Assembly: GCA_942492765.1 (NCBI GenBank)
Contig: OW818634.1
Span: forward strand, 665,159-729,158
Direction: 5' to 3'
Length of the DNA: 64,000 nt
DNA from: an uncultured bacterium
GTDB taxonomy: Bacteria; Patescibacteriota; Patescibacteriia; Patescibacteriales; UBA12465
Shown here: one piece after another, positions 1 through 18,853 of the stretch
Numbering within the stretch: the first letter of the stretch is position 1
Layout: each line of letters opens with the position of its first letter
Made by a program: the position numbers and the translations under genes
The notes under the pieces: generated by a model
Database searches by the model: none
Seen by the model: only the letters and a program-made list of their open reading frames with translations
What the model was told of the DNA's origin: nothing

Positions 1-1
1 G

Positions 2-790
2 AAGACCTTGTCCAGCGTCGTCGTTGCCCAGAACAAGCTCTTGAAGAACGGCATCGAGATAATCTTGGCTGGAGACGGCGATAACATCATCATTGGCGAA
101 ACCCTGGCGGTCCAGCCTTTTAAGGATTTATCTTTGCGGGATTTCGGCCGGCCGGCGCGCGATGATATGAGCGGCATGTTGCCGCCGAAATTAGCGCAGA
201 TAATGATCAATCTGGCTCAGATTAATGATTTAGAGGCTGTCTTGATAGACCCTTTCTGCGGTTCCGGTACGGTTTTAAGCGAAGCTATTATGATGGGGTA
301 CAAGCATTTATTCGCTTCCGATATATCCGCGAAAGCTGTCGAGGATACGCGCCGGAATGTCAATTGGACTAAGGAATTATATAAGATTGAAGACGTTAAG
401 TTGAAGTTATTTGTTAAGAATGTTTTGGATCTGTCCAAGTTCATCAAGGGGGATTCGGTCGCGGCCATCATCACCGAACCATATCTCGGCCCGCAAAGAG
501 GCCCAATCGCCTTCAAGACGGTTATTGGCAACCTCGAAGAGCTTTATTCCGGGTCGTTAAAGGAGTTTCATAAGGTTTTGCAGCCAGGCGGCCGCGTCGT
601 CATGATCTGGCCGATGTTCTATGGACAGCGCCCCATGACTCCAGATTATTCCGGCTTTAAGTTGTTAAATATGATCCCGGAAGATCTAAGAGGGAACGAA
701 TTCATCAAGAAACATAATCGCGACACTATCATCTATGGCCGCCCGGGACAAAAAGTCTATCGCGAGATAGCGGTGCTCGAGAAGATTTAG
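2..790 (+). CDS. SAM-dependent methyltransferase, UPF0020/Trm11-RlmL-like (5' end cut by window edge)
   Basis: Frame stays open back to position 2. Motif I 'LIDPFCGSGTVLSEA', motif IV-like 'ITEPYLGP', and 'LPPKLAQIMINLA' typical of THUMP-associated RNA methylases. Confidence 0.7.
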   Translation, partial: KTLSSVVVAQNKLLKNGIEIILAGDGDNIIIGETLAVQPFKDLSLRDFGRPARDDMSGMLPPKLAQIMINLAQINDLEAVLIDPFCGSGTVLSEAIMMGYKHLFASDISAKAVEDTRRNVNWTKELYKIEDVKLKLFVKNVLDLSKFIKGDSVAAIITEPYLGPQRGPIAFKTVIGNLEELYSGSLKEFHKVLQPGGRVVMIWPMFYGQRPMTPDYSGFKLLNMIPEDLRGNEFIKKHNRDTIIYGRPGQKVYREIAVLEKI

Positions 791-830
791 ATAGCAAAAG
801 AGTGTTTCGTATTTAAAATGTTTGCAAATA

Positions 831-860
831 AAAAAGAGCTTCTTTTGTAGGAGCTCTTTA
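831..860. terminator. Bidirectional hairpin terminator between convergent genes
   Basis: AAAGAGCT (833-840) / AGCTCTTT (852-859) stem flanked by an A-run and a T-run. Confidence 0.5.
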
Positions 861-1430
861 ATAATATACAGTTTCTTCCCAGATTATGCCCCGTTCGGTG
901 CAGCGGCATTTTTCCTGGAACCAGAATTTCCCGAAGATGACTAGGGTGCTGTCTAAGACGGGGACTAGCGCATCGTAAAATTCTTCCAGTTCCCGAGCTG
1001 TAGCGATGACTTTTTTTGCCTTGTATTTACCGCGCCTCATAGTTTGGGCACAGAACTTTTCCCAGGGAGACATTTTAAAGTTAGAAAAAACTTTATTATA
1101 TCGGCCTAGCCAATAATAGTAATTATTAACTAGAATTGCCTCTTTGGTGACTAGTACCTTATATTTTTCATATAACGGCCGGTAATCATCTTTGAAATAA
1201 TGCGAATCAAAAGTTTCAGCTTTTTCAAAAATGTCTAGGAGTCTCTTATCGCTAGCAAGGTATTCTTTGGGGGTTTTTCTTCCTGAATTTTTTGAAAAAC
1301 CGCCATATCTTTTTAATAGCATTTGAGTCTCCTTCGAGTACCCTTCATCACTCTGAGAAATTTGGGAGAATGCGGATAAAGATAAGAAAAAAGATAATCC
1401 GACAGCTAAAAATACAGTCAGGTTTTTCAT
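858..1430 (-). CDS. Hypothetical secreted protein
   Basis: ATG-started ORF with N-terminal signal-like 'MKNLTVFLAVGLSFFLSLSAFSQ'. No recognisable catalytic motif. Visibly AT-richer than its neighbours. Confidence 0.6.
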   Translation of the reverse strand: MKNLTVFLAVGLSFFLSLSAFSQISQSDEGYSKETQMLLKRYGGFSKNSGRKTPKEYLASDKRLLDIFEKAETFDSHYFKDDYRPLYEKYKVLVTKEAILVNNYYYWLGRYNKVFSNFKMSPWEKFCAQTMRRGKYKAKKVIATARELEEFYDALVPVLDSTLVIFGKFWFQEKCRCTERGIIWEETVYY

Positions 1431-1497
1431 GATTCTTTTTGTTTTTAATGGACGTATAGCTTACTTTATCATATTATTAGGATATTGTCAATCGTTT

Positions 1498-1525
1498 AAA
1501 AAAAGAGCCATGTTGGCTCTTTTTA
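1498..1525 (-). terminator. Intrinsic terminator downstream of ychF
   Basis: AGAGCCA (1504-1510) / TGGCTCT (1514-1520) with a 3-nt loop, an A-run on the plus strand (U-run on minus) and a T-run on the other side. Confidence 0.6.
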
Positions 1526-1544
1526 TAGATATATTAGTTTATTT

Positions 1545-2609
1545 TTATCTGTTTACTAAGAAATTAGCGACATCTCCATCTTGGAAGACATAGTCTTTCC
1601 CTTCAGTGCGGATAAGCCCGAGCTCTTTAGCCTTGGCCTCGCTGCCACATTCGACGAATTTTTCCCAATTGATGACTTCGGCCCTAATAAATCCTTTGAT
1701 GAAATCAGTATGGATGACGCCGGCTGCTTGCGGCGCTTTGGTACCTTTCTTGATGGTCCAGGCTCTAGTTTCGTCCGCTCCAGTCGTAAAGAAGGTTTCG
1801 AGACCTAAAGTATCATAGGCGCTCCTGATAAGCTTATCCAGGCCGCTTTGCTCTAACCCAAGCTCTTTGATGTATTCCGCCTGATCTTCTTCGGGGAGAT
1901 TAGCGATTTCTTCTTCGAGCTTCACATTGACTTTAATGACCGCTTCCTTAGTGCCCGGAAGAACATCTCCGGAATGGCCCTCGTCAATATTCAGGAGATA
2001 TATCATCGGTTTGATAGTCAAAAGATTCAGGGTCTTAACGAAAACCATCTCTTCGTCATCAAAGATTAATTCTCTGGCGGCTTTTCCAGCGGCCAGATGC
2101 TCAAATATCTTCTCTAGAATCTTGTTATTGGCGATAATCTCCTTATCTCCGCTTTTGGCCTCGCGCCGGCTCTTGTCCAGGCGTTTTTCAATTGTAGATA
2201 GATCGGCTAATATCAGCTCAGTATTGATAGTTTCTTTGTCTTCGGCTGGATTGACGCGCCCTTCCACATGAATGACGTTTTCGTCCTTGAAGTCGCGGAC
2301 AACCTCGCAGATAGCATCACATTCTCTAATATGAGCCAAGAATTGATTTCCGAGACCCTCACCCTTAGAGGCGCCAGCAACAAGTCCGGCAATATCGACG
2401 AATTCAATCGTCGTCGGAATGACTTTAGCTGGCTTGGAAACGGCCGCCAGCTTATCTAAGCGAAAATCAGGGACTTTGACGACTCCGACGTTGGGATCAA
2501 TGGTGCAGAAAGGGTAATTAGCCGCTTCTACACCCTTTTTAGTTAAGATATTGAATAAAGTGGACTTGCCGACATTCGGCAGGCCGACGATTCCGATTGA
2601 TAAAGCCAT
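1545..2609 (-). CDS. ychF: Ribosome-binding ATPase YchF (Obg-family)
   Basis: 'GIVGLPNVGKSTLFN' P-loop, 'DIAGLVAGASKGEGLGN' G3, and C-terminal 'GVIHTDFIKGFIRAEV' TGS-like region. Length is typical. Confidence 0.93.
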   Translation of the reverse strand: MALSIGIVGLPNVGKSTLFNILTKKGVEAANYPFCTIDPNVGVVKVPDFRLDKLAAVSKPAKVIPTTIEFVDIAGLVAGASKGEGLGNQFLAHIRECDAICEVVRDFKDENVIHVEGRVNPAEDKETINTELILADLSTIEKRLDKSRREAKSGDKEIIANNKILEKIFEHLAAGKAARELIFDDEEMVFVKTLNLLTIKPMIYLLNIDEGHSGDVLPGTKEAVIKVNVKLEEEIANLPEEDQAEYIKELGLEQSGLDKLIRSAYDTLGLETFFTTGADETRAWTIKKGTKAPQAAGVIHTDFIKGFIRAEVINWEKFVECGSEAKAKELGLIRTEGKDYVFQDGDVANFLVNR

Positions 2610-3156
2610 AATAGTTATATATGTTTTCGAGTATAGCGATAATTTTGTCTTTTGCCAAATAGAGCCTATATTTTTGAAAAAAAAGAGACCCAGATGGGCC
2701 CCTCTTTATATAAAAAAATGAATATAAATACTAGGCCGTATCTGAGTCTCATCCCCAATTTGATAATCCATTTTTGGATTGTTTTTGATCGAGGATTTTG
2801 GCTCTTTGCTAACTTAAAGTGCATGTTATTACCATCTTCTAGCAAATTTGTTTTTATTTTAATTATTTTTGCTAATTTTTAATAAGATTTAGTAAAAATT
2901 TCTTTTTTGATTTTTATTAGATCTCATAGCTTTTTATTAGCACTATGATTTGCTCAGAATTTTTATCGATCATGTTAGCTCTGATCGTGATAAATGAAGA
3001 TAGTTAATGAACTTATATTTATTATAGCACTTTTAAATATAGGGGTCAAATATCTTGGACTTAAAGTCAATGTTTTTGATGTTTTGTCTAATATTAAATA
3101 AAATATGTCTATTTTATCTTTTTAAGTCCAAGCTATTTTAGACTTAAAATTATAGT

Positions 3157-3210
3157 TTATACACATAAAACACAAGTTATCCACAGTTTTTAGAGTTATT
3201 TTGTGAATAA
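3157..3210. promoter_or_regulatory. Cluster of three DnaA-box-like 9-mers (TTATNCACA)
   Basis: TTATACACA 3157-3165, TTATCCACA 3177-3185 (perfect consensus), and TGTGAATAA 3202-3210 (reverse complement TTATTCACA). They lie at the edge of an AT-rich, ORF-poor spacer (about 2690-3200). Confidence 0.35.
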
Positions 3211-3238
3211 AAAATAATATCCTGGGTAGGATATTATT
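3209..3238 (-). terminator. Intrinsic terminator of tRNA-Cys
   Basis: AATAATATCC (3213-3222) / GGATATTATT (3229-3238) perfect 10-bp stem with a 6-nt loop. A U-run follows on the minus strand (A-run 3209-3212). Confidence 0.6.
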
Positions 3239-3243
3239 TAGTG

Positions 3244-3317
3244 AGGCTTGGGTGGGAGTCGAACCCACGAATGACAGTTTTGCAAACTGTAGCGTTAGAC
3301 CACTTCGCCACCAAGCC
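3244..3317 (-). tRNA. tRNA-Cys (GCA)
   Basis: Hand-folded 74-nt cloverleaf: acceptor GGCTTGG/CCAAGCC, anticodon stem ACAGT/ACTGT with loop TTGCAAA, T-arm GTGGG-TTCGACT-CCCAC, and discriminator U73 (Cys identity element). No encoded CCA. It lies 30 nt downstream of the capA-like gene. Confidence 0.9.
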
Positions 3318-3347
3318 GCGATCATTAACCGACTTTTGAATTTTAGC

Positions 3348-4481
3348 TTATCTCTTTTCAGTTGTAAACAGTTTTAGCTCTCCGTCTGCCGGAATATTAA
3401 GTTTTTTGAGCAAGGCCTCTTTTTCCGGGCCGTCCTCCATTACTTCGGCTTGGCCGTAATCCCGAATCTTTATGGGGATAAGCTCTATCTTTTCCCAGCT
3501 GTTATTCTTCCAACTTAGTTTGGCGATCAATCCTTGGCTAGTCTCCAGCGACCACATTTGATCAAAGATCAGGTTGCCCAGAGAATAGATAATCGGCTTG
3601 CCTAGATAGGTTTCCCATACTTGCGGCCAATGCGGATGATGGCCGATAACCAGATCGGCGCCGTTCTCTATGGCTGTATGAGCGAAAGCGACCTGCTGCT
3701 TATTCGGCTCGGTCGTATATTCTTCGCCGGCATGCATCATGACTATAATAACGTCAGCCTCGCTTTTTAGGTTCTTGATATCATCTGCCATCTTACCTAT
3801 ATTCATGCTAGCGATGCCAGGACGCTTATTAGTAGCGATCGAGTCATCTTCTGGATAAGCATAGTCTAGAAAACCGAATCTTTCGTTATTAACGATAAAC
3901 ACTTTGGCTTTATGGGCTATTTCTTCGTTATTTCCGGCGCCAATCGCCTCTATTTTGGCTTCGGATAAGACTGCTTGCGTCTTTGCTAAGCCCTTAGCGC
4001 CTTGATTCATGATATGGTTATTAGCTAAAGCGGCGAGATCCACGCCGGATTCTATAAGCCCAGCAGTAGCTTCCGGATTGGCCTTGAACATAAACGACCC
4101 GGTCGGCACGAAATAATTTTTAGATTCCAAGAAAGGAGACTCCAGATTAACAATTGTCAGATCGGCGGCGCTTAAGAAATCAGCAATCTTAAGGAACGGC
4201 CAGGAATAATCCTTATTCTTTTCTATCTTGTCATTAACATGGCGAGAGAGCATGACGTCGCCGCCGAAAATAAGAGTAGTGGGCCGTATTTCCGTTAAGG
4301 GTAATTGTTGTCCATCAGTGGCACCGGGCTTCGAGGGGGAAGAAAATATATTAGAGATGATATTGCCTGAGGTATCTGGAGCGGCCGGAGAAACGGCTAT
4401 GCGAAATAAGAAAAATATCGCTAATACTGAAATAATAGCGACAGAGACGATGATTATGATCTTTTCAGTTCTCTTATCCAT
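3348..4481 (-). CDS. CapA/PGA_cap-family metallophosphatase-like protein, membrane anchored
   Basis: 'GGDVMLSR', 'NLESP', 'ANNH', 'MHAGEEY', 'GHHPH' signature series. N-terminal TM 'IIIIVSVAIISVLAIFFLF'. Confidence 0.8.
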   Translation of the reverse strand: MDKRTEKIIIIVSVAIISVLAIFFLFRIAVSPAAPDTSGNIISNIFSSPSKPGATDGQQLPLTEIRPTTLIFGGDVMLSRHVNDKIEKNKDYSWPFLKIADFLSAADLTIVNLESPFLESKNYFVPTGSFMFKANPEATAGLIESGVDLAALANNHIMNQGAKGLAKTQAVLSEAKIEAIGAGNNEEIAHKAKVFIVNNERFGFLDYAYPEDDSIATNKRPGIASMNIGKMADDIKNLKSEADVIIVMMHAGEEYTTEPNKQQVAFAHTAIENGADLVIGHHPHWPQVWETYLGKPIIYSLGNLIFDQMWSLETSQGLIAKLSWKNNSWEKIELIPIKIRDYGQAEVMEDGPEKEALLKKLNIPADGELKLFTTEKR

Positions 4482-4541
4482 GATTATATTATAGCATTAA
4501 ATCAGAGCTTTTGCGGGTAAAATAGGGAATATGGGATCAGA

Positions 4542-4570
4542 TTGACAAGATTTAAAAAAATATATAAAAT
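4542..4570 (+). promoter_or_regulatory. Sigma-70-type promoter for tRNA-Glu
   Basis: TTGACA (4542-4547), 17-nt spacer, TAAAAT (4565-4570), about 45 nt upstream of the tRNA 5' end. Confidence 0.5.
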
Positions 4571-4614
4571 AATCTTGCGATTAAGGAATATCCTTAATCT
4601 TATTTAATATTCGA

Positions 4615-4686
4615 GGTCCCTTCGTCTAGTGGTTAGGACGTCAGGTTTTCATCCTGTTAACAGGGGTTCGATTCCCCTAGGGACTA
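4615..4686 (+). tRNA. tRNA-Glu (UUC)
   Basis: Hand-folded 72-nt cloverleaf: acceptor GGTCCCT/AGGGACT, D-arm GTCT..GGAC, anticodon loop TTTTCAT (anticodon TTC), and T-arm AGGGG-TTCGATT-CCCCT. No encoded CCA. Confidence 0.9.
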
Positions 4687-6172
4687 CTATTGGAGAATTA
4701 GCACTTGCTAGTTCTCTTTTGTTTTGTAAAATTAGCGAAAGATTAGGTGTTCGATTTCCTGAAAAATCAAAAATGGGTTTTTCCGTAAAAATCAAACTCT
4801 GATATTTTAGTTTATCTTCATAACTAGCTTTTTTATAAGCCGGAGCAAGAGAAGATAAGACTTTAAAAACTTTGTCTACTTCTTTGAAGATATTCCGGTT
4901 ATAAGACGGCTGATCGCAAGCGGTAGCCTGAGTTTCTGAAATATTTTGTTTTACTTTTTCCATTTCGTTTTTAAAATCCTCATCATCCAATAAATCTTTT
5001 TTCTTCATTTCAATCAGTTTAGCTTTTTCCGTTTGGAGAACGGCTAATTTTTCTTTAGTTAAATTTGAGTTATTGTTTTCCTCGCCCGTTTTTTCATTAA
5101 AGACGTCTATCAATATTTTCTTATAGTTTTTTAAAACCACTTCACTCGGCGTAATTCTTTTTAAAAAGTCATGAAATTCTCCCTCTAGTTTATCTTTGGA
5201 AATGCATTTTAAGCCGTGGCAGTCTTTGTTATAACATTTATAAAACGGATAGAGTTTTCCGCTTTTGCCTTTGGAAAAATGAGCGGTCAATGGCCGGCCA
5301 CAATGAGGACATAAAATAAAATGTCGGAGCGGAAAAGATTCGTTAACTCTGGCAATAGAAATATTATCGCCTTTATTTCCAGTTTTGATTTGTTTTTGGC
5401 ATTTATAGAAGATTGATTCGTTAATTATTTGCTCGTGAGTGCCTTGATATTCTTGGCCTTTGACGGTCATTATTCCTAGATAGAATTTCTCGGTTAATAT
5501 CTTAAATAAAGTTTGGCTAGTTAATTCTTTATTTTTCCACGATTTGAATCCGGCTTTGATCATTAACTTCCGTATTTCTTCCATTTGATAGGCTCCGGTT
5601 GAGAATTTATCAAAGGCCATTTTAATAATCTCCGCTCTTGGTCTGTCTATCGTTATAATGGCTCTATTTTGCTCATCACGCTTGTTTAGATAACCGAGAG
5701 GAGCTTTATAGCACCAAATGCCTTGCTTAATTTTTTCAAGCATACAAGACGATACTCTTTCACTTCTAACATCATTATCGAATTGAGCGAACGAGGCCAT
5801 TATTGTGCCGATTAGTTTTCCGCTCGGTGTTTTATCGACTGTTTCCGTGGCGGAGATAAACTTAATTTTTAATTCTTCTAAGGCCATTAAAATAGTAGCG
5901 TAATCTTTTACGTTTCTTGATAGTCTATCAATTTTATAGACGATAACGGAATCAAGATTTTTATAATTCTTGGAGCAATAACTTAATAATTCCTGTAGGC
6001 CTTTACGGTTTACAGTTTTAGCGGACAGGCCATCATCGTGGAACATCTCAACAATTTCAATATCATGATTAAGGGCATATTCTTGGCAGGCCTTTTTCTG
6101 TTGCTCAAGACTAACCCCGTTTTGGGCTTGGTCTTCGGTTGAAACTCGGTAATAAATAATTCCTTTTTGCAT
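4649..6172 (-). CDS. Large serine recombinase (integrase type)
   Basis: 'GIIYYRVSTEDQ' catalytic-Ser motif, 'GLSAKTVNRKGLQELL', 'VYKIDRLSRN', recombinase domain 'APLGY', and Zn-ribbon 'CPHCG...FYKCYNKDC'. A coiled-coil tail follows. Start moved to the ATG at 6172 (MQKG), 16 codons inside the track's start at 6220. The last ~13 codons are antisense to tRNA-Glu. Confidence 0.85.
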   Translation of the reverse strand: MQKGIIYYRVSTEDQAQNGVSLEQQKKACQEYALNHDIEIVEMFHDDGLSAKTVNRKGLQELLSYCSKNYKNLDSVIVYKIDRLSRNVKDYATILMALEELKIKFISATETVDKTPSGKLIGTIMASFAQFDNDVRSERVSSCMLEKIKQGIWCYKAPLGYLNKRDEQNRAIITIDRPRAEIIKMAFDKFSTGAYQMEEIRKLMIKAGFKSWKNKELTSQTLFKILTEKFYLGIMTVKGQEYQGTHEQIINESIFYKCQKQIKTGNKGDNISIARVNESFPLRHFILCPHCGRPLTAHFSKGKSGKLYPFYKCYNKDCHGLKCISKDKLEGEFHDFLKRITPSEVVLKNYKKILIDVFNEKTGEENNNSNLTKEKLAVLQTEKAKLIEMKKKDLLDDEDFKNEMEKVKQNISETQATACDQPSYNRNIFKEVDKVFKVLSSLAPAYKKASYEDKLKYQSLIFTEKPIFDFSGNRTPNLSLILQNKRELASANSPIVVPRGIEPLLTG

Positions 6173-6212
6173 AGAATTAAAGGTTAATAAATAAAAAGAG
6201 AGCGGTAAACTG

Positions 6213-6332
6213 TTGGACACAACTTAGCAAAAGCCTTGTTGTACAGCCACCGCTCTCTTTATATCAAAACGACTTATCTCGTCGCTTGGACGTAAAAATA
6301 AAATGGCTCTCTGCTATATAAGTTGTGTCCAA
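6213..6332. repeat. Nested inverted repeats upstream of the recombinase gene
   Basis: TTGGACACAACTTA (6213-6226) / TAAGTTGTGTCCAA (6319-6332), perfect 14 bp. Nearby pair AGAGAGCGGT (6197-6206) / ACCGCTCTCT (6248-6257), perfect 10 bp. Confidence 0.6.
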
Positions 6333-6357
6333 GTGTAATTCTATCATATTTTTGTAT

Positions 6358-6519
6358 TTATTCAATATTATTAGTTTTCTTATAAATGTTATTTTTATAG
6401 AAGTTATAGGCGAGATAGGCCAGTTGATAGAGATCACGCCTCATGAGAGTGAGCTCTTCTTCGGAATAATCCGAGGCATGCGAGCCGAGATTCTTCCGGA
6501 AACTGTCCATACTTATCAT
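6358..6519 (-). CDS. Small hypothetical protein (53 aa), not in supplied ORF track
   Basis: The ATG at 6519 translates to MISMDSFRKNLGSHASDYSEEELTLMRRDLYQLAYLAYNFYKNNIYKKTNNIE and ends with TAA. It is co-oriented between Rep and the recombinase and is more protein-like than the hydrophobic plus-strand ORF 6325-6549. Confidence 0.35.
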   Translation of the reverse strand: MISMDSFRKNLGSHASDYSEEELTLMRRDLYQLAYLAYNFYKNNIYKKTNNIE

Positions 6520-6569
6520 GTTTTTGGTTGCACATATGTTTTACTTTAAAAGGGTTTAATCAAAGACTG

Positions 6570-7370
6570 CTAACCGTTTTTAAAGAGGCGGTAGCGAACC
6601 TCTCCGACATATTCGGAATGATACTGCTTATCGAGCAATAATTCAGGAGGCGATTTTAAGCTGTTAAAATACTCTCTGGCCTTAACCCCGATGAAGACTT
6701 CGGGCTTTATTAACTGGCGAGAATAAAAGATTTTTTTCTTGCCGGCTAGTCGGCCGTCAAACAATTCTTTACCGATATACTTAGCGACATATAAACCAAC
6801 ACGAGAAACGTGGCGGACGTTATTAATCTTAACGAAACCGAATTTCCAGATATCAGCTAATAGGCTATTAGCCGTATGGGGTAAGTTAGACAAAACGTGA
6901 TAATGAATATTTCCGCCGAACTCCTTTTTAATCTTAGAGTGGAAATAATAATCTCCTTGAAATTCGGGAACGGCTAAATATCGTAAATCCGGATAATGTC
7001 GTTTTAATCTTTTAATAAAGTTAGAAAAGATTAAATTACACTTGGTAATATCCGTAAACGAGCCGTCGTCTGATTTCTTGTCGTCAAAGGTTAGAGTAAT
7101 GAAGACTTTTAATTCGGGATTTGAATTAACGAGTCGGACAATATTAGCTCTTGTCCGGCGAAACGAAAATTCATTTCTTTTAAACCGATTATGTTCTTTA
7201 TTTTCTTTTTCCTCTTCGCTTTCTTTTGCCTCTGCCACTTTGAGCTTTTTCTTGCTTTGTCTTCTTTTCCGTTTGTGGTTGATTCTAATCGCTTGTTCGT
7301 AGTTATACACTTCTATCAAATCGCCTGATCTGATAAGTTTTTGCCGATAAGCTAATGGTTTGATATCCAT
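6570..7370 (-). CDS. HUH-superfamily rolling-circle replication initiator (Rep)
   Basis: Motif 1 'VFITLTFDD', motif 2 'NIHYHVLSN' (HUH), and motif 3 'GLYVAKYIGKE' (catalytic Tyr + Lys). This is the same three-motif order as the phiX174/gokushovirus VP4 and pC194-type Reps. The N-terminal tract is basic. Confidence 0.75.
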   Translation of the reverse strand: MDIKPLAYRQKLIRSGDLIEVYNYEQAIRINHKRKRRQSKKKLKVAEAKESEEEKENKEHNRFKRNEFSFRRTRANIVRLVNSNPELKVFITLTFDDKKSDDGSFTDITKCNLIFSNFIKRLKRHYPDLRYLAVPEFQGDYYFHSKIKKEFGGNIHYHVLSNLPHTANSLLADIWKFGFVKINNVRHVSRVGLYVAKYIGKELFDGRLAGKKKIFYSRQLIKPEVFIGVKAREYFNSLKSPPELLLDKQYHSEYVGEVRYRLFKNG

Positions 7371-7385
7371 AGGCTAACGGCGTTA

Positions 7386-7417
7386 AGTGTGCCTATAGTC
7401 AAGTTAATAGGCACACT
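7386..7417. repeat. Perfect hairpin, candidate Rep nick site / double-strand origin
   Basis: AGTGTGCCTAT (7386-7396) / ATAGGCACACT (7407-7417) with a 10-nt loop. On the Rep-coding strand the loop reads TAACTTGACT. It lies 16 nt upstream of the Rep start codon. Confidence 0.55.
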
Positions 7418-7441
7418 AGTTTTTGTTCTTGATTAACACTA

Positions 7442-7522
7442 CCGGTCGCCCCCTGTTTTTCTTCTTCGGCTCCCCCACGGGGGATCCGCCGAAGAAGAAA
7501 AAAACAGCGGGGGTCGAGCCGG
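7442..7522. repeat. ~80-nt imperfect palindrome (long hairpin/cruciform)
   Basis: CTTCTTCGGC (7461-7470) pairs with GCCGAAGAAG (7488-7497). T5/A7 runs, CCCCC/GGGGG and CCGGTCG/CGAGCCGG extend the arms. The apical part is CCCCCACGGGGG (7472-7483). Confidence 0.7.
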
Positions 7523-7797
7523 ACTATGTTTACATCAAAGGGACACTAAAAGAAGTTAGAGACGTCTTACTGGGGCTTAGCAGTAGCCCCGATAAGACGG
7601 CCACTCGGCCAAACAAAAAACACAAGCCATATATCCGGATATATTGCTCGTGTTTTAAGTTGAATTGGCAAAGATTTAGACTTTGCTCGTTATTATATTG
7701 AAGACTGCGTGTTTAAATTCATGGACGTAATCTGACTAGCCGTAGCTAGGTTTTATCTTCCTGCCTTATTATTGTTTATTAATAAGTCTATGAGGGC

Positions 7798-7826
7798 ATT
7801 ATAGCATAAAATAGGGGGTGAATCAA
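7798..7826 (-). promoter_or_regulatory. Near-consensus sigma-70 promoter reading toward Rep
   Basis: Minus strand: TTGATT (7826-7821), 17-nt spacer ending in TG, TATAAT (7803-7798). It sits immediately after the stop of the upstream gene, about 420 nt before the Rep ATG. Confidence 0.45.
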
Positions 7827-7843
7827 GAGGTAAAATTATTTAA

Positions 7844-9046
7844 TTATTCGCCAATTTCAATTTTGTTTAAATCAGAATTTTTTACACCAAGACCTAATTT
7901 TCTCATAGCATTATAAGCCTCAGCTCCATCCTTTAAATAATGAGCTACGCCATTAAAATCAATATAATAAGCTTGCCCCTTATCTTCAACCTTTAGTAAA
8001 ATTTTACCACTTTGTTTTTTGGCTAAATTTTTGTTCTTCTGTATTTTTTCTAAATTGCTATTTGTAATACCAATTCCAAATTTTCTCATAATATTATACG
8101 CCTCCTCGCCATTAGCCATATAATATCTTTTTCCGTCTTTAGGATTAATATACCACGCTTCACCGTGAGATTCTGTTTGTAATAATATTTTACCCTTCAA
8201 CCTTGAAGATAGTTTTGTATCAATTTTAATATCACTACTAGTTGCCTTATAAGACACAGTACTAATACTAATTTCTTTTACACATTTTCCATTATCTAAT
8301 TTAAAACCATTAGAACAATGACAACCATATTTATTGCCATATGAATTTTCCCCTTGCTGAAACTGACAATATTCATTGTAGCTAGTGCATTTATTATTAA
8401 AAATAATATACCCATCGTTACAAGAGCAAGAATCCTGTCCCTCGTTATAATATGAATTACTTCCGTAATTAGCTATACAGGAATTATTATTTAAAATAAT
8501 GCTTTGTTTATTTAAAGAATCTAACTTCGCTTGATAAACGAGGTCATTAATCTTTTGTAAATTATCGGCAGATTGCTGTTTTTGCAACTTCTCGTCACTC
8601 ACACATTCATCATATTTGTCTTTTAATTCAGAATATAAATTTATAGCATTTCTACACGCCTGCAGTCTTAAATTGTAGTCGTTAGTAATACCAGCAACAT
8701 AAGAAGTACTGGCACTACTAAGCACGCCTCCAGCTCTTTGTCCAATAAGCCCTTTAGCATTACTAATAGCTCTCTGAGCCTCTACTTGCAGTGCTGAATA
8801 CTGATATTCCGTACAAGAAGCTACGGGATAATTACATTGACTACCGGTATCGAAACACTCATCTGTAGTATAATAACCGACGCTGCTGTCTTTCCATCCG
8901 TCATTACACACAACGCTTCCATCCAAATCAGCCCCATAAGAGCAATTAACACCTAAATGGGAAGAGCACGACCCACTTGTAGCATTGCTTACATTAGGTA
9001 AAAAAATAAAAAAACCAACTAACGCCAACAAAAAATATTTTTTCAT
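7844..9046 (-). CDS. Secreted Cys-rich protein with two C-terminal ~50-aa tandem repeats
   Basis: Signal-like 'MKKYFLLALVGFFIFLPNVSNA' (ATG at 9046; the track start at 9064 is TTG). Many Cys in the N-terminal and central parts, with a coiled-coil middle. Repeats are 'GKILLQTESHGEAWYINPKDGKRYYMANGEEAYNIMRKFGIGITNSNLEKI' and 'GKILLKVEDKGQAYYIDFNGVAHYLKDGAEAYNAMRKLGLGVKNSDLNKI'. Confidence 0.7.
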   Translation of the reverse strand: MKKYFLLALVGFFIFLPNVSNATSGSCSSHLGVNCSYGADLDGSVVCNDGWKDSSVGYYTTDECFDTGSQCNYPVASCTEYQYSALQVEAQRAISNAKGLIGQRAGGVLSSASTSYVAGITNDYNLRLQACRNAINLYSELKDKYDECVSDEKLQKQQSADNLQKINDLVYQAKLDSLNKQSIILNNNSCIANYGSNSYYNEGQDSCSCNDGYIIFNNKCTSYNEYCQFQQGENSYGNKYGCHCSNGFKLDNGKCVKEISISTVSYKATSSDIKIDTKLSSRLKGKILLQTESHGEAWYINPKDGKRYYMANGEEAYNIMRKFGIGITNSNLEKIQKNKNLAKKQSGKILLKVEDKGQAYYIDFNGVAHYLKDGAEAYNAMRKLGLGVKNSDLNKIEIGE

Positions 9047-9268
9047 AAAATACAAAATTATCAAAAAAGGTCTCCCGAGACGGTTAACACACCCTTTCGG
9101 ATATGCGCCTAGATAGCGAAAACCGGTCAGAAGACCATCTCTGCTATCTAGGGCTTAAACCATGCCTCAATAAATTAAGGTTTAGGTCTATCAATTGTAC
9201 TTAAAATTTACCAAAAAATGGTTAAAAAGTCAATTTATATTTTGCACTGATTATGATATACTATATAA

Positions 9269-10264
9269 ATGCAAGTTTTTCTTGATTCCAATATATATCT
9301 AAACTATCTTAGTGGGACGGCCGATTCAGAGGCTTTCCCTAAACTTTTGAAATTAGTAGAAGAAAAAAATGTCTCATCCATAATAACCCAACAAGTCATA
9401 GATGAGTATTTTAGAAATTACACATTTATTAAAAATGAAAAAATAAAGCAAATTACGTCTAAAAAAGACTTAGATCTAAGTTCTATAAAATACACTACTT
9501 TAAAATCTTTTACTGCTGAATTTAAAAAGATAAAAAGTCAATTTGAAAGGAATATTGCTAACCAAAAAAAGAATATTAAAAAAGAAAGGCTGATATTTAA
9601 AGAAAGAGAAAATAATATAGAAAAATTATTTAAAAAATCCCATTTAATTGAAGAAACTGAGGAAATATTAAAAAAAGCCGAAAGGAGATTTTTAAAAGGT
9701 AATCCACCCAGGAAAAAGAAAGAAAGAAATGACTCTTTCGGGGATGCTATTAATTGGGAATCTTTAATTTTATTAAATATAAATAAAAGGCCTAAAGATA
9801 ATATTGTAATAATTTCTTGTGACGCTGACTATACCGAAGAATTGTATGGAGAAATAAAATTAAACTCACTTTTATTAAAAGAGTGGAAAGCAATATCGAG
9901 AAAAAAAATTAAGATTCTTTTAACAATAGGTGAATTTATTAATGTTTTTTCTAAAAAAGAAGTTATAAAAAAGAAAGTAATCAAAACAGAAAAGGCAAAT
10001 ATTATGGAGGAGGCTCTTATTAGAAGAAGCCAACATTTGGGGCAAATAAAAGATTATACTAGAGCTGTTATATCAAAATTGTCACCAAGAGAACAAAAAA
10101 TTTTAGAAATGAGATTCGGTTTAATTGACGGTGTGCCCCATACCTTAAATGAGGTTGGACAAGAATTTGAGGTTAGTGGACAAAGAATACGTCAAATAGA
10201 ATCTAGGGCTTTGGAAAAAATAAGAAAATTTAGAGAATTTGATGATATTATAACTGATTTTTAA
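9269..10264 (+). CDS. PIN-like (DUF4935-type) nuclease domain fused to a sigma-70 region 4 helix-turn-helix
   Basis: N-terminal '[12 protein letters not shown]', 'VIDEY', '[24 protein letters not shown]' and 'ISCDADY' give the PIN-like acidic residues. C-terminal '[50 protein letters not shown]' closely parallels RpoD region 4.1-4.2. Confidence 0.7.
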
Positions 10265-10346
10265 TTTTTCAAAATTTCTGCCCACTTCTCAATTTCTCCA
10301 ATAATCTGATTAAAATTTTGAGAAATATCAGACTTTAAGACTACGT

Positions 10347-10380
10347 AAAAAAGAGTTTGTTAATTAACAAACTCTTTTTA
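10347..10380 (+). terminator. Intrinsic terminator (palindromic, could act in both directions)
   Basis: AAGAGTTTGTTA (10351-10362) / TAACAAACTCTT (10365-10376), perfect 12-bp stem flanked by A4 and T5. Confidence 0.65.
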
Positions 10381-10384
10381 TTAA

Positions 10385-10665
10385 GAAAAAAGCCCTTCCG
10401 GAGAATAGGGCTTTAGTTTGTGAACCTCTGTCCAAGTTAGTTTGTGCTGAAGTTCTTGTAGGAAGGTTTAGGCGTTGGGCTCAATGCTGAGGCCCATAAA
10501 GTATGAATCTTGCAGGTGTTGTCAGTCTCTCCAGAAACTATCTTTTTAGACAATCCTATAACCTCGGCTAGTTATAAAGTACGAAACTTTTTATCTAGTG
10601 GATTTGGCCTGTTTCCTTGGGGGCGAAGCCACTTGGCGGAAATCACTATTGTATTCTTCCTTCCT
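10385..10665 (-). ncRNA. Orphan ~280-nt transcription unit (candidate ncRNA or small-peptide mRNA), family unknown
   Basis: Bounded by the promoter at 10672-10700 (minus) and a terminator hairpin AAGCCCT/AGGGCTT (10390-10396/10407-10413) followed by U6 on the minus strand. No minus-strand ORF of 60 aa or more. No tmRNA, RNase P, SRP or tRNA motifs were recognised. Confidence 0.4.
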
Positions 10666-10671
10666 AATAAA

Positions 10672-10700
10672 ATTATAAATCTAGCCTCAAAAAAAGTCAA
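10672..10700 (-). promoter_or_regulatory. Near-consensus sigma-70 promoter of the orphan unit
   Basis: Minus strand: TTGACT (10700-10695), exactly 17 nt, TATAAT (10677-10672). Confidence 0.55.
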
Positions 10701-10857
10701 TAAAATTAAAATCATCTAAAAACTCTCGTCAATTTCTTCTAAAACACGCGGATTATGGTAGGTTTTTTAGCCTATTGATACAATAATTAAGCGTATTGGG
10801 CTATAATATTTAATATAACAACCTTTAGAGCGACTAGATAAATAACTAACTAACTAT

Positions 10858-11343
10858 ATGATTCGCAGAATACAAAGAGCGGACTATACTGAAATGGTTA
10901 AGCTGATTAAGGAGTTTATGGTAGACTATAATGCCAAGTGGGTGTTTAAAGGCGTGCAATCAGATTACATGAAGTATAAAGATGTCAGCACCTTGATTTC
11001 TAAAGGAGCAAAAAAAGATTGTTACAATAAATCCACGAAAAGAGTAATTTTTGTCTTTGAAGAAAACCATAAACTATTAGCCTATATCTCTGGCGAGATA
11101 AGAACCGATAAAGAAAAAACGATATCTCCAGTCGGCCACATAGACGATTGGTTCGTCAGTAAAAAATATCGTGGCAAAAAAATTGGAACACAGCTTTACA
11201 ATCAAATGATGAGATTTTTTAAAGAACACGGGGCAAAAATAGTTACACTAGGAGTATTTAATCAAAACAAAGCCGTCTATAAACTCTACGAAAAAATGGG
11301 GTTTCAGCCCCTGGAGACGACCATGTTAAAACGCCTAAGATAA
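10858..11343 (+). CDS. GNAT-family N-acetyltransferase
   Basis: 'IDDWFVSKKYRGKKIGTQLYNQMMRFFKEHGAKIVTLGV...LYEKMGFQP' gives the acetyl-CoA motif A (R/Q-x-x-G-x-G/A) and the C-terminal 'YxxxGF'. Confidence 0.8.
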   Translation: MIRRIQRADYTEMVKLIKEFMVDYNAKWVFKGVQSDYMKYKDVSTLISKGAKKDCYNKSTKRVIFVFEENHKLLAYISGEIRTDKEKTISPVGHIDDWFVSKKYRGKKIGTQLYNQMMRFFKEHGAKIVTLGVFNQNKAVYKLYEKMGFQPLETTMLKRLR

Positions 11344-11347
11344 AAAA

Positions 11348-11385
11348 GACCCGCAACATTATGGTGTTGCGGGTCGCATTTTTGT
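11348..11385. terminator. Bidirectional intrinsic terminator
   Basis: GACCCGCAACA (11348-11358) / TGTTGCGGGTC (11365-11375), perfect 11-bp stem with an A-run upstream and a T-run downstream. It lies between convergent genes. Confidence 0.7.
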
Positions 11386-11416
11386 AAGAACTAAGATTAC
11401 CAAGTAAAGGTTTTCT

Positions 11417-12271
11417 CTACCAATCTAATTGTACGGCATTTTTCAGATCCTGTTCGCTTATGTCCAAATGACTGTCGCTTGACGTCACATGTTTAGGTAT
11501 GAAGACGGTCTGATGGAACATGCCCTTAGGGTCAGTATATGAGGCTTTTAGATAGAATTGGCCGATAGGCGTTTCTATCTTTCCCTTTGATATCCCGCCA
11601 CGGCTGCCCTTGGGGCAGGATAAGGAAATAGATTCTGGTTGAGAGCTCACGTATATTTTGTATTCCTGAGCTGTCAACATGATTTTTAGCGCATTCTTTC
11701 CTTTCAATGGCTTGTTGGATAATCTCTTTATATCCGCGTCTGATATGCGGCATACAGTTTCATGGGCGGAGAATCTTTTGCGGATTTCCGCATATGGCCA
11801 TATCGACTGATCTTCGCCATTTCCTTCCTTTATCCCGATACCTAACACCAACTCTCCTTTAGGATCGTTAATGTAGTTCACTGAGTCAGAGGCGGAGAAT
11901 TCCAAACCTCGACCCAGGACGGAAAAGATTTTGAAAGAGATAGAACCCTTGTAGATCAGTTTTATCTGTCCGGACGGATTTCTGAGAGTTTGTGAAGTTT
12001 GTCCGTCAGCTGGGCTGATAATAATCAGATTGCTCGCAGGTACTGCCTTGGCGACAGAAAATTTGATAGTTCCATCAGCGGTTTCACATTTGATTAGCAC
12101 GGCTGATCCGGTAGCCGAGAAAGCTTGTACCCCGTTATTCGGGATAGTAGCTGTCTGCTCGTTGATAGTTACTTTAAGTGTTTGGCCGAAGCCGTTCGAC
12201 ACTTTAACTTGACTGAAAGCAGCGGCGCTGCACATAGTCAATATTACCAAAGAAAAAATAAATTTTCTCAT
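11417..12271 (-). CDS. Hypothetical secreted protein
   Basis: Signal-like 'MRKFIFSLVILTMCSAAAFSQ'. The body looks beta-rich. No known motifs recognised. Confidence 0.6.
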   Translation of the reverse strand: MRKFIFSLVILTMCSAAAFSQVKVSNGFGQTLKVTINEQTATIPNNGVQAFSATGSAVLIKCETADGTIKFSVAKAVPASNLIIISPADGQTSQTLRNPSGQIKLIYKGSISFKIFSVLGRGLEFSASDSVNYINDPKGELVLGIGIKEGNGEDQSIWPYAEIRKRFSAHETVCRISDADIKRLSNKPLKGKNALKIMLTAQEYKIYVSSQPESISLSCPKGSRGGISKGKIETPIGQFYLKASYTDPKGMFHQTVFIPKHVTSSDSHLDISEQDLKNAVQLDW

Positions 12272-14386: not shown

Positions 14387-15424
14387 ATGAGATACAGATT
14401 ATATACAACTTCGCATAAAGCCTGGGACGCTATGTTCAGGGCAATGGCGTCCGCGCAGAAGTCCATCTATATAGAGATGTATATCTTTCTGGGTGATACG
14501 CAATCAACTCATAATTTTCTTAAACTCTTGAAAGAGAAGGCGCTAGCCGGCGTCGAGGTCGTAATTATTGCCGACGCTTATGGCAGTAATTCCCTGAAAC
14601 CGGAGGCGATTGCGGAGATGCGTGCGGTTGGCGTAGAATTCATTTATTTTTCCCATTGGTTCCGACACACGCACCGTAAGATAGTTATCATCGATAATAA
14701 GATTGCTCTCATCGGCGGCGTCAATATCGAGGAGAAGACGCGAAATTGGCGCGACCTGCAGATCAAGCTCCAGGGCAAGATCATCAAGCCGCTTCTAAAA
14801 TCATTCGCTTATGCCTATGAAATGACTGGCGGTAAGAAAGAATCTATCCTGAAATATAGCCGCTTGCCGCTCGTCCAGAAGATAAAATCCTGGATAACCG
14901 ATAATTTTGATATTACTCTCGGCGGTTATCATCTCAATGAATATTATAAGAAGAAGATCGTCGGTGCGAAAGAATCTATCCAGATGGTCACCCCCTATCT
15001 CCTGCCGCCGCGCTGGATGCTCGCTCTCTTAGATGACGCCTGTCGCCGCGGCGTCAGAGTAGAGATACTTATACCGGATGATACTGACGTCAAGCCCCTG
15101 AATAAGGTGAATTATCTGAATTCTTGCCGGATGGCGGCCTATGGCGTCAAGTTCTATCTTTTGCCAGTCATGAATCACGCCAAGATAATGCTGATCGACG
15201 GCGTCGAGGGCGTAATCGGTTCTCAGAATATGGATGTCTTGTCCTTTAATTGGAATATCGAGGCCGGCGTCTTCTTCCAGCAGAAGCAGCTGGTCGCCGA
15301 TATGGAGAAGATCATCGAGCACTGGAAGAAGGAATCGGTTCCTTTCGAGGCTGCCGGCAAAAAGATCAAGCGGCGCGACCGCATCCTGATAGCGATACTT
15401 AAGATCTTCTATCCGATATTCTAA
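14387..15424 (+). CDS. Phospholipase D / cardiolipin-synthase-like protein (two HKD motifs, no N-terminal TM)
   Basis: 'HRKIVIIDNKIALIGGVNI' and 'HAKIMLIDGVEGVIGSQNMD' HKD motifs. It starts 6 nt after the patatin gene. Confidence 0.8.
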   Translation: MRYRLYTTSHKAWDAMFRAMASAQKSIYIEMYIFLGDTQSTHNFLKLLKEKALAGVEVVIIADAYGSNSLKPEAIAEMRAVGVEFIYFSHWFRHTHRKIVIIDNKIALIGGVNIEEKTRNWRDLQIKLQGKIIKPLLKSFAYAYEMTGGKKESILKYSRLPLVQKIKSWITDNFDITLGGYHLNEYYKKKIVGAKESIQMVTPYLLPPRWMLALLDDACRRGVRVEILIPDDTDVKPLNKVNYLNSCRMAAYGVKFYLLPVMNHAKIMLIDGVEGVIGSQNMDVLSFNWNIEAGVFFQQKQLVADMEKIIEHWKKESVPFEAAGKKIKRRDRILIAILKIFYPIF

Positions 15425-18011: not shown

Positions 18012-18038
18012 ATTAAAGTTTAAGATAATATTAATAAA

Positions 18039-18066
18039 AATAGGCCAATTTTAGCCTATTTTTGTT
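18039..18066 (+). terminator. Intrinsic terminator of uvrA
   Basis: AATAGGC (18039-18045) / GCCTATT (18054-18060), followed by a T-run. Confidence 0.55.
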
Positions 18067-18235
18067 TATATTATTGACATTTCATAATAAAAATGATTTT
18101 ATTTGATAAATAAAGGTCTTTAAAATAAAGAATAAAAGATTTGCTGCAGCAGAAAGAGGTTTATTAATTAGACTCCTTCCTGCTGTGGCAAAATCAACAA
18201 TGATTTGAGAACAGTATATTAAAAATATTATTGTC

Positions 18236-18853
18236 ATGAATACAACGGAAAATTCTGTTAGCGACAACAAAAAACTTACCGATGAACAAATCGGTAAATT
18301 GTATCGTAAAACCAATGAAATTATTCGTCGGGTAAACGAGGGAACTATCTCTTACGAATCATCGTTAGAGGGGATGCAAAAAATAATTATTGAGGGGAAG
18401 GCCGTTGATTATTTGCGAGTTACTAATGGCCAAGCAGAAATTAGGATACTAGAGCACCTTATCGATAGCGATGCCGCTCCTTTTATTCCTGGCGGCTGGT
18501 CAGTCGACGAACACAAAACAAGCGGACTTTTCGAATTTGATTCCGCAAAAATTTCTTTGTATCTGTCTGAAAAGCAGAAAGAAGGAATTATCAGTGGACA
18601 TGATTTACGCAAAGATCTGGCGGGTAAACCGGTAATGAACGCCAATGTTCTTGATTACTTATTAGCGCGTCCAGAACTTATTCCAGAAGAATGGAAAGGA
18701 AAACATATTTTCTTCTGGGGTACGATTTATTGCGACTCCTTTGGCAACCTTTATGTTCGTTGCCTCCACTGGGATGGTTCCAGATGGTGCTGGGGCTATG
18801 GCTGCTTTAGTGATGGCTGCGCCTCCGATGCTCCTGCCGTCCTCGCAAGTTGA
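18236..18853 (+). CDS. Hypothetical protein with Trp/Cys-rich C-terminus
   Basis: ATG ORF. The C-terminal 'IFFWGTIYCDSFGNLYVRCLHWDGSRWCWGYGCFSDGCASD' is distinctive. No family recognised. Confidence 0.55.
   Translation: MNTTENSVSDNKKLTDEQIGKLYRKTNEIIRRVNEGTISYESSLEGMQKIIIEGKAVDYLRVTNGQAEIRILEHLIDSDAAPFIPGGWSVDEHKTSGLFEFDSAKISLYLSEKQKEGIISGHDLRKDLAGKPVMNANVLDYLLARPELIPEEWKGKHIFFWGTIYCDSFGNLYVRCLHWDGSRWCWGYGCFSDGCASDAPAVLAS

Follow-up and report, generated by a model that had tools for sequence, protein, structure and literature searches.

Tycheposons of Prochlorococcus are small, cargo-carrying integrative elements that target tRNA genes in a streamlined genome and bring their own replication genes; they have neither virion nor conjugation genes, accumulate in tandem at a single site, and leave behind partial sites and degraded remnants from which islands are built (Hackl et al., bioRxiv 10.1101/2020.12.28.424599). 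Among elements of this type, 910 of 937 use tyrosine recombinases; their replication relies on primases, polymerases and helicases, and the insertion is flanked by partial copies of the tRNA (bioRxiv 10.1101/2020.12.28.424599). The integrative and conjugative elements of actinomycetes (AICEs) of the pSAM2 type integrate at tRNA 3' ends, form an excised circle that undergoes rolling-circle replication via RepSA, and keep attP beside the integrase gene. Serine integrases have been described as 'not known for targeting tRNA genes', with 14 of 297 mapped there and unconfirmed (PMC7192596). Here we analysed a 64-kb window (the whole stretch of DNA under study, from contig OW818634.1 of an uncultured patescibacterium) and describe an element at its tRNA-Glu gene whose lifestyle is closest to those of tycheposons and pSAM2-type AICEs, and which lacks the defining features of both.

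In the window, the span from 4682/4688 to 10338/10344 is probably a patescibacterial site-specific integrative element of 5.66 kb (5,657 bp) that used a large serine recombinase (LSR) of its own to insert at the final 6 nt of tRNA-Glu. An initial annotation, made from the sequence alone, had proposed an integrative rolling-circle replicon lacking genes for virions or transfer, and this proposal is supported: the block is not syntenic in relatives, the compositional break holds on calculation, and both the LSR and the rolling-circle protein (Rep) retain their catalytic residues. New in the present analysis are the exact ends, the composite nature of the island, a split integrase gene with two predicted isoforms, an apparent terminator swap, a phiX174-like candidate origin, the tRNA preference of the LSR clade, and the recombinase-less modules of related arrays. 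Mobile elements of Patescibacteria (Candidate Phyla Radiation, CPR) are barely described, and a widespread family can now be recognized automatically by exact ends, a candidate origin and a gene-order signature.

Element ends and attachment sites

Two homologue searches (E ≤ 0.001) returned 140 homologues of Rep and 298 of the LSR, and the fetched homologue contigs (loci with L numbers) were compared at the far end of the element. At the 11 far-end junctions examined, from 7 loci, a conserved tail-coding sequence stands on the LSR strand directly after GTAGTC, a hexamer that gives the final 6 nt of tRNA-Glu in reverse complement and corresponds to the V-V codons of the LSR at 4687→4682. The position upstream of GTAGTC is occupied by a host-specific terminator-like hairpin at 7 of the 11 junctions, and by the 3' end of another LSR in tandem arrays. 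Across hosts, attB is conserved on its tRNA side and differs on the other, that of the terminator. Identity between attL and attR is limited to the 6 bp of GACTAC, with no long flanking repeats, which is consistent with the short cores of serine integrases (Table 1). The initial annotation had suspected a junction at or in the tRNA, and this core, the last 6 nt of the tRNA, bears it out. It had also seen a minus-strand LSR whose last ~13 codons run antisense to the 3' half of the tRNA; this overlap was confirmed, with 13 codons (39 nt including the stop) at tRNA positions 35–73, and the end of the tRNA was called at 4687 instead of 4686.

Two other placements of the crossover were rejected. 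Searches for direct and inverted repeats and a BLAST search of the tRNA against the window gave neither a displaced tRNA half nor a long repeat, as a duplication of the tyrosine-integrase kind would have left. A crossover in the anticodon stem had been suggested by L001, and the 11 far-end junctions put the breakpoint at GACTAC instead. In L001 (12690–12734), the LSR 3' end carries tRNA-Glu positions 29–73 only and is joined to unrelated DNA, a rearrangement; two Logan contigs with the same sequence, L002 and L003, break within the tRNA, which suggests population heterogeneity at the junction.

With these ends, the reconstructed attB reads tRNA-Glu...GGGACTAC joined to GTAAAAAAGAGTTTGTTAATTAACAAACTCTTTTT, i.e., the tRNA followed by its own terminator. 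As written for the empty site, the attB junction is CCCTAGGGACTAC joined to GTAAAAAAGAGTTTG (longer form, TTCCCCTAGGGACTAC joined to GTAAAAAAGAGTTTGTTAATTAAC), and the predicted attP junction of the excised circle is CCAATAGTAGTC joined to TTAAAGTCTGAT (longer form, GCTAATTCTCCAATAGTAGTC joined to TTAAAGTCTGATATTTC). A search with the attP pattern found the predicted junction contiguous in two metagenome contigs and gave no match among viral contigs. In L064, positions 3411–3449 match window positions 4682–4720 (97.4%) and abut positions 3340–3416, which correspond to 10268–10344 of the window (93.5%).

Neither L009 nor L068 carries the element at this tRNA. The closest reference genome, L009, shows ~80% nucleotide identity in the flanks and aligns with positions 1–4687 of the window and again from ~11.9 kb, not between. 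Right after its tRNA-Glu comes a terminator hairpin, with no LSR, and beyond the hairpin lies a 750-bp relic with an orphan tail. In L068, tRNA-Glu is followed by a GNAT gene.

The tract from 4688 to 11390 has a GC content of 34.0% against 46.8% in the remaining window and is the lowest-GC stretch of 6.7 kb in the 64 kb (minimum 0.339; window mean 0.455, SD 0.042). The GC content of third codon positions (GC3) and the tetranucleotide distance also shift across it, which agrees with the AT-richness against both flanks that had been noticed initially. The right boundary first given, 10.9–11.4 kb, holds for the AT-rich tract, which extends to ~11.39 kb, but not for the element, which ends at 10339–10344. 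The tract runs past 10344 because a second segment follows, with a terminator, a candidate RNA unit of ~320 nt and a GNAT gene; it is thus a composite of the att-bounded element and this separate segment, with GC contents of 33.7% (5,657 bp) and 35.6% (10345–11390), respectively. Other low-GC patches of the window lie at 858–1430 and 2610–3243, with a 190-aa and a 205-aa open reading frame (ORF), both without family match, and at 18000–18850, where a 630-bp non-coding stretch of 25–31% GC lies downstream of tRNA-Cys. These three patches showed neither a tail nor an LSR relic.

The tRNA-Glu gene is intact and is preceded by a sigma70-like promoter at 4542–4570. Judged from the sequence, integration has shifted its original terminator (10348–10379) by 5.66 kb, and the element appears to supply a new one at equal distance from the tRNA end. 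The hairpin of the P' arm is followed by TTTTGTTTTG and is coded antisense by the LSR codons 'KRELASANSP', the 40 bp beside the core. Its predicted RNA fold has a free energy of −14.6 kcal/mol (z −4.0), and across 10 sequences 97% of the cells are paired, with 2 compensatory pairs, against 41–55% in slid controls. The tRNA would thus remain intact, with an antisense hairpin embedded in the LSR gene replacing the original terminator. Such a swap would show how a minimal genome can keep a tRNA functional on insertion.

Table 1. Features of the element and of the adjoining segment (window coordinates)
Feature	Position	Strand	Basis
tRNA-Glu(UUC), attB B arm	4615..4687	+	ARAGORN; Rfam 62.1 bits; promoter 11/12
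LSR, integrated form, 507 aa from M17 (probable start)	4649..6172	-	Pfam; PHROG integrase; homologues; TP901-1 alignment
attL core GACTAC, last 6 nt of the tRNA	4682..4687	.	GTAGTC precedes tail at every far end; L009 synteny stops at 4687
P' arm hairpin GGAGAATTAGCA-CTT-GCTAGTTCTC with T-run, putative replacement terminator	4692..4727	+	terminator scan 4692-4717; RNA fold; covariation
Conserved ~50-aa ORF (53 aa here), immediately upstream of LSR	6358..6519	-	alignment of 8 loci
HUH rolling-circle Rep (predicted), two-tyrosine type, 266 aa	6570..7370	-	PF23343; PHROG RCR initiators; motifs
Candidate double-strand origin, 11-bp stem, loop TAACTTGACT	7387..7417	-	invariant block in 6-7 elements; DNA fold z -5.95
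Conserved structured non-coding region upstream of rep	7418..7830	-	alignment; promoter; folds; covariation
Cys-rich cargo protein, 406 aa, signal-peptide-like N-terminus	7844..9064	-	sequence
LOOT-like RNA motif directly 5' of the Cys-rich gene	9071..9188	-	Rfam RF03000 46.3 bits, gathering score 46.4, E 8e-7
PIN_12::Sigma70_r4 (region 4) fusion, 331 aa	9269..10264	+	Pfam; PADLOC MzaA match over HTH part only
Apparent detached LSR gene 3' end (25-aa tail), attP P arm	10261..10338	-	dN/dS, amphipathic helix; contiguous with LSR 3' end in L064/L063; in frame in P0147, L065
attR core GACTAC, right element end	10339..10344	.	far-end junction comparison
attB B' arm, apparent original tRNA-Glu terminator, perfect 16-bp palindrome, displaced by 5.66 kb	10345..10379	+	fold z -5.1; hairpin 10348-10379
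Second AT-rich segment outside the element: candidate ~320-nt RNA unit and GNAT	10380..11390	.	promoter, fold, GNAT contexts in L068/L069

The integrase gene and its detached 3' end

The LSR ORF (4649..6220, −) carries the Resolvase (PF00239, 127 bits), Recombinase (PF07508) and Zn_ribbon_recom (PF13408) domains. Its true start is probably M17, at 6172, which is preferred because LSR homologues measure 507 aa. The motifs YYRVSTEDQ and VYKIDRLSR align to the TP901-1 integrase (3bvp), the catalytic serine included, and R12, S14, R59, R86 and R89 are invariant in 38 homologues, as are the cysteines of the zinc ribbon. An AlphaFold2 (AF2) model of the homologue P0180 (mean pLDDT 85.7) shows long helices at residues 347–394 and 400–424.

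From 4681 down to the stop codon at 4649, the LSR codons are host tRNA read antisense ('PRGIEPLLTG' and stop). C-terminal peptides antisense to the T-arm were found in 104 of 120 LSR homologues, down to ~30% identity, and in 4 of 120 sequences of a control set; examples of such endings are ...PRGIEPLLPG, ...PTGIEPVLPH and ...RTGVEPVSPP. Three homologues (P0147, P0173 and P0180) end instead in a conserved tail, ...I-I-G-E-I-K-R-W... In the window, the tail is encoded at 10338→10264 (−), directly preceded by GTAGTC, and joining 4682 to 10344 yields an in-frame tail that is collinear with these three proteins.

The evolution and the modelled structure of the tail indicate that it is a real protein segment. 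Its median dN/dS is 0.31 over 45 pairs, its helical hydrophobic moment is 0.53 compared with 0.20 ± 0.11 for shuffles (p ~ 0.005), and its motif is kept in LSRs that are ~50% identical to that of the window. In the AF2 model of P0180, the tail forms helices at residues 498–504 and 506–525, with a block pLDDT of 64–81. As the tail appears to be a protein segment, the free element should encode an LSR of ~522 aa.

We propose that in the free circle attP lies within the 3' end of the LSR gene, which would encode the ~522-aa protein ending in an amphipathic helix. Integration would cut the gene at the V-V codons (GTAGTC) and move the tail exon 5.66 kb away to the far end of the element, and the integrated ORF would read on for 10 codons antisense through the T-arm of the tRNA. 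The alignments thus suggest that the LSR gene spans attP and that the integrated 507-aa form exchanges its last 25 aa for 10 tRNA-antisense residues. An integrase gene that crosses attP would tie two isoforms to the integration state, which offers a testable hypothesis for the control of direction by serine integrases.

In an alignment of 8 loci, the ~50-aa ORF always directly precedes the LSR gene, also in L065 and L066, where the gene upstream is not an HUH Rep. The ORF is a candidate for a directionality factor or regulator. In L066 (409–3433), an LSR with the long attP-form tail and a partner ORF of ~57 aa lies directly downstream of a tyrosine-recombinase (Phage_integrase) gene, which takes the usual position of Rep.

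Replication module, relatives and cargo

The HUH Rep named by the initial annotation matches PF23343 REP_ORF2-G2P (55.9 bits) and the PHROG 'rolling circle DNA replication initiation', and some of its homologues also match a second Pfam family, PF20199. Its catalytic motifs (FxTLTF, H-Y-H and YVAKYxxK) are retained, and in 18 homologues, down to 38% identity, F90-x-T-L93-T94, H156-Y157-H158 and Y194-V-A-K197-Y198-x-x-K201 are invariant.

Upstream of rep, ~470 bp are conserved between elements. This region contains a hairpin 17 nt upstream of the rep ATG, whose stem and loop are invariant. In the phiX174 record (NC_001422), the origin reads CAACTTG and, after the nick annotated at 4305/4306, ATATTAATAACACTATAGACCAC; the sequence of the element, TAACTTGACTATAGGCACAC, holds both halves of that origin (AACTTGA and CTATAG(A/G)C..CAC) without the AT-rich spacer. 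The gene A protein of phiX174 shares YVAKY with Rep, and the nick site lies on the rep-sense strand in both, whereas the element differs from phiX174 in the position of the site in a hairpin loop, in its 266-aa Rep and in having no virion genes. By this analogy, the hairpin is the predicted double-strand origin, with the nick at TTG/A. Once the element is excised, Rep would nick the conserved loop (TAACTTG/ACT), which lies a short way upstream of rep, and would copy the circle by rolling-circle replication. The structured region further upstream may be a single-strand origin and/or a leader: it contains a promoter, TTGATT-17-TGnTATAAT, at 7826–7798 (−), hairpins far more stable than shuffles (z −5.6 to −5.7), and a long hairpin at 7441–7519 with 8 compensatory pairs. 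An ORF of 92 aa called at 7423..7701 (+) falls in this conserved non-coding region and was considered spurious. Rfam at a relaxed threshold returned nothing beyond hairpin-type chance matches, either upstream of rep or in 10345–10857.

A Rep of the phiX174 A/G2P type and an origin resembling that of phiX174 would also be expected of a remnant or satellite of an integrated single-stranded DNA phage (Microviridae- or Inoviridae-like) whose capsid genes were lost or are supplied by a helper. However, Pfam and PHROGs revealed no capsid or coat, scaffold, pilot or morphogenesis gene beside Rep in the element, in ~10 related elements or in the circular L065 described below, and the attP pattern was missing from the viral contigs; we therefore regard such a remnant or satellite as highly unlikely. 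Alternatively, the HUH protein could act mainly as a relaxase nicking an oriT, with rolling-circle replication secondary, in an integrative mobilizable element (IME) that would depend on a helper transfer apparatus or a DNA-uptake/export route. Two reports describe streptococcal IMEs that combine serine or tyrosine integrases with mobilisation proteins resembling rolling-circle replication (RCR) initiators (PMC5357655, PMC5704250), and the hairpin with the nick site could equally be an oriT. The absence of virion and transfer genes noted initially was confirmed with Pfam and PHROGs, which found no capsid, terminase, relaxase or coupling protein in the element, and an element without transfer genes of its own fits mobilization by a helper. 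On the other hand, Rep matches replication-initiator families of phages and plasmids (PF23343, PHROG) and not relaxase families, and none of the fetched loci contains a coupling protein or a type IV secretion system, so that mobilization as the main activity seems unlikely. The integrative rolling-circle replicon remains our preferred interpretation.

The closest homologues have 96% (Rep) and 95% (LSR) amino acid identity, and the homologue contigs are mostly labelled by their sources as Patescibacteria, Falkowbacteria, Woesebacteria and Buchananbacteria, with Shapirobacteria also named. The fetched contigs show a constant order of Rep, ~50-aa ORF and 507-aa LSR, and Rep and LSR co-occur in many of them. 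In L004–L007, the LSR 3' end overlaps tRNA-Glu exactly as in the window. The cargo upstream of this module is unrelated between loci and comprises Fic (L001), a Gp49/HTH toxin-antitoxin pair (L004), a type I restriction-modification system with SocA (L006), a diversity-generating retroelement (L055), radical-SAM neighbours (L058) and a ResIII/methylase system (L065).

Two loci bear on mobility. In L064, identity to the window is 91% over the Rep/origin DNA against 70% in the host flanks, a contrast that points to horizontal transfer. L065 (10,823 bp) has a 30-nt terminal direct overlap, an ORF that is continuous across the joined ends, no tRNA and a long-tailed LSR of the attP form, and is read as a circular excised relative. 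Tests for circularity on the short contigs L003–L007, L062, L063 and L066 were negative, and only L065 had the terminal overlap. An immobile, decaying genomic island of LSR and Rep relics under vertical inheritance would account for the many decayed modules, orphan tails and LSR relics of the arrays and for the lack of an excised copy of the exact element. However, the copy in the window has an intact LSR, small ORF and Rep, and its two att arms, origin hairpin and tail ORF are intact as well; this and the near-identical modules elsewhere (the protein identities given above, and the 91% of L064 beside 70%-identical flanks) make such an island extremely improbable.

Tandem arrays and orphan tails are frequent in the related loci. 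In L055 and L006, the LSR is fused in frame to the tail of the next element in tandem; 40-bp LSR relics are joined to tails in L055, L063 and L064, and modules with intact tails and no recombinase occur in L001, L009 and L069. Newly arriving elements plausibly insert on the tRNA side of a site that is already occupied, and repeated integration at one tRNA would then build tandem arrays. The recombinase-less modules and orphan tails suggest an accretion of cassettes that builds variable islands with defence and toxin-antitoxin genes in very small genomes.

Several arrays have features of their own. The recombinase-less modules at 4701–9985 of L069, 8983–9775 of L009 and 7142–8280 of L001 each end in an intact tail and GACTAC; their cargo includes an 874-aa vault MVP-shoulder-like gene, TrmB, a 179-aa repeat protein and Fic, and the module of L009 is flanked by the 17-nt direct repeat TTTTTTATTATGTAGTC. 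In L058 (also L060), the 17-nt 3' end of tRNA-Glu is present in three copies (features at 5712–5728, 11446–11462, 11662–11734 and 12010–12035). The LSR of L058 terminates in a truncated fragment of a tRNA, 200 bp ahead of a complete tRNA-Glu(ctc), and a 5' fragment of the tRNA (positions 1–26) lies beside a small GIY-YIG ORF that is missing from L059. The tandem pair at 4650–16760 of L055 consists of a first element with bAvd, a reverse transcriptase and Fib_succ_major-type target genes, and of a second element in which Rep is present and ~1.9 kb without called genes occupy the expected place of the LSR; the next tRNA is tRNA-Arg(tct).

A further, rather doubtful possibility is that the split integrase gene serves as a built-in sensor of state and that the tail with GACTAC is a portable recombination site. 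As a sensor, the helix of the full-length LSR would favour attP × attB integration or stabilise the protein, and the tail-less integrated LSR would differ in directionality or stability, so that integration and excision could be controlled without a classical phage-type recombination directionality factor. As a portable site, the tail with GACTAC would permit the capture and shuffling in trans of recombinase-less modules (GNAT, Fic, the 179-aa gene, the vault-like gene) at tRNA 3' ends, and Patescibacteria would then possess a cassette system resembling integrons but driven by a serine recombinase.

Several observations weigh against the proposed integrative rolling-circle element. Neither a circle nor an empty site of the exact element or strain was found in exact-protein look-ups and the attP pattern search, and the two metagenome matches to the attP pattern are relic or array junctions, not circles. 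The circular L065 belongs to a different subfamily, with an LSR 51% identical to that of the window and an unrelated gene in the position of Rep. The 6-bp identity of attL and attR does not fix the crossover dinucleotide, and simple attP × attB integration does not explain the many loci with recombinase-less modules and 40-bp LSR relics. A profile search of Rep against solved structures gave no match, and the activity of Rep and the nick site were assigned by motif and sequence analogy. Pfam and PHROGs gave no family match for the 53-aa ORF, and no recognisable directionality factor was found.

All genes listed in the initial annotation were confirmed, including the 53-aa ORF, which is conserved, but the att-bounded element does not include the GNAT or the 'orphan RNA unit'. 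Within it, the Cys-rich 406-aa protein had no significant match in Pfam, PHROG or PADLOC. Its LOOT-like motif falls just below the gathering score; a second LOOT (56.6 bits, above the threshold) lies in L001 at 15158–15263 (+), 5' of a 296-aa gene, and genes borne by such islands may have LOOT as their leader. A defence annotation of the cargo was rejected: PADLOC gave domain-level matches only (MzaA via the helix-turn-helix (HTH) part of the PIN_12 fusion and a weak PDC-M11A) and no nameable system.

The candidate ~320-nt unit of the second segment is probably the 'orphan RNA unit'. Its sigma70-like promoter at 10700–10672 (−; 11/12) is aimed at the bidirectional terminator at 10379–10348, and its fold has a z of −3.4; the unit matched no Rfam family, and no homologue turned up in the fetched loci. 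A first set of these loci contained nothing homologous to 10345–11420, and in loci fetched subsequently the GNAT gene (10858–11343) matches L068 and L069 at 77–79% nucleotide identity. In L068 (9912–10750), 16 nt separate tRNA-Glu(ctc) from the GNAT (79%), behind which come a degraded tail, GGCTAC and a terminator; in L069 (9890–10486), the GNAT abuts the tail and GACTAC of a recombinase-less module. The GNAT sits beside tails and cores in both loci and therefore behaves as an array module; it is a neighbouring module of the arrays, a recombinase-less cassette in relatives, and not part of the element.

Comparison with known systems

Our literature search, incomplete in coverage, found no description of elements combining an LSR and Rep in Patescibacteria, nor of an LSR gene crossing attP. 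Compared with tycheposons, the element of the window has an LSR, a core of 6 bp, an HUH Rep, no duplicated tRNA half, and an attP that appears to lie inside the integrase gene. The AICEs differ from it in their tyrosine integrase with excisionase, in an att identity segment inside the tRNA, and in an FtsK-like transfer protein, Kor and Nudix; Pfam detected no Phage_integrase, FtsK or Nudix domain in the element. What it has in common with AICEs is the RCR Rep and the target at a tRNA 3' end.

The LSR resembles the integrases of TP901-1, A118, phiC31 and Bxb1 in its Resolvase, Recombinase and zinc-ribbon domains with a long coiled-coil, in its RVST serine and in its short core. It differs from other serine-integrase elements in that the tRNA 3' end is the rule in its clade (104 of 120) and in that the integrase ORF is predicted to cross attP. 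A whole LSR clade at tRNA 3' ends conflicts with the avoidance of tRNA genes that has been the working rule for serine integrases (PMC7192596).

The arrays of this family, bounded by short direct repeats, recall composite SCCmec, which is mobilised by ccr. An attP inside a gene whose product is altered by integration is known from mycobacteriophages with integration-dependent immunity and from the split integrases of the SSV type. Those systems use a tyrosine integrase, and the affected gene is either a repressor, from which a C-terminal degradation tag is removed, or the integrase itself, which is split in two. In the element of the window, by comparison, only the last 25 aa of a serine integrase would be exchanged.

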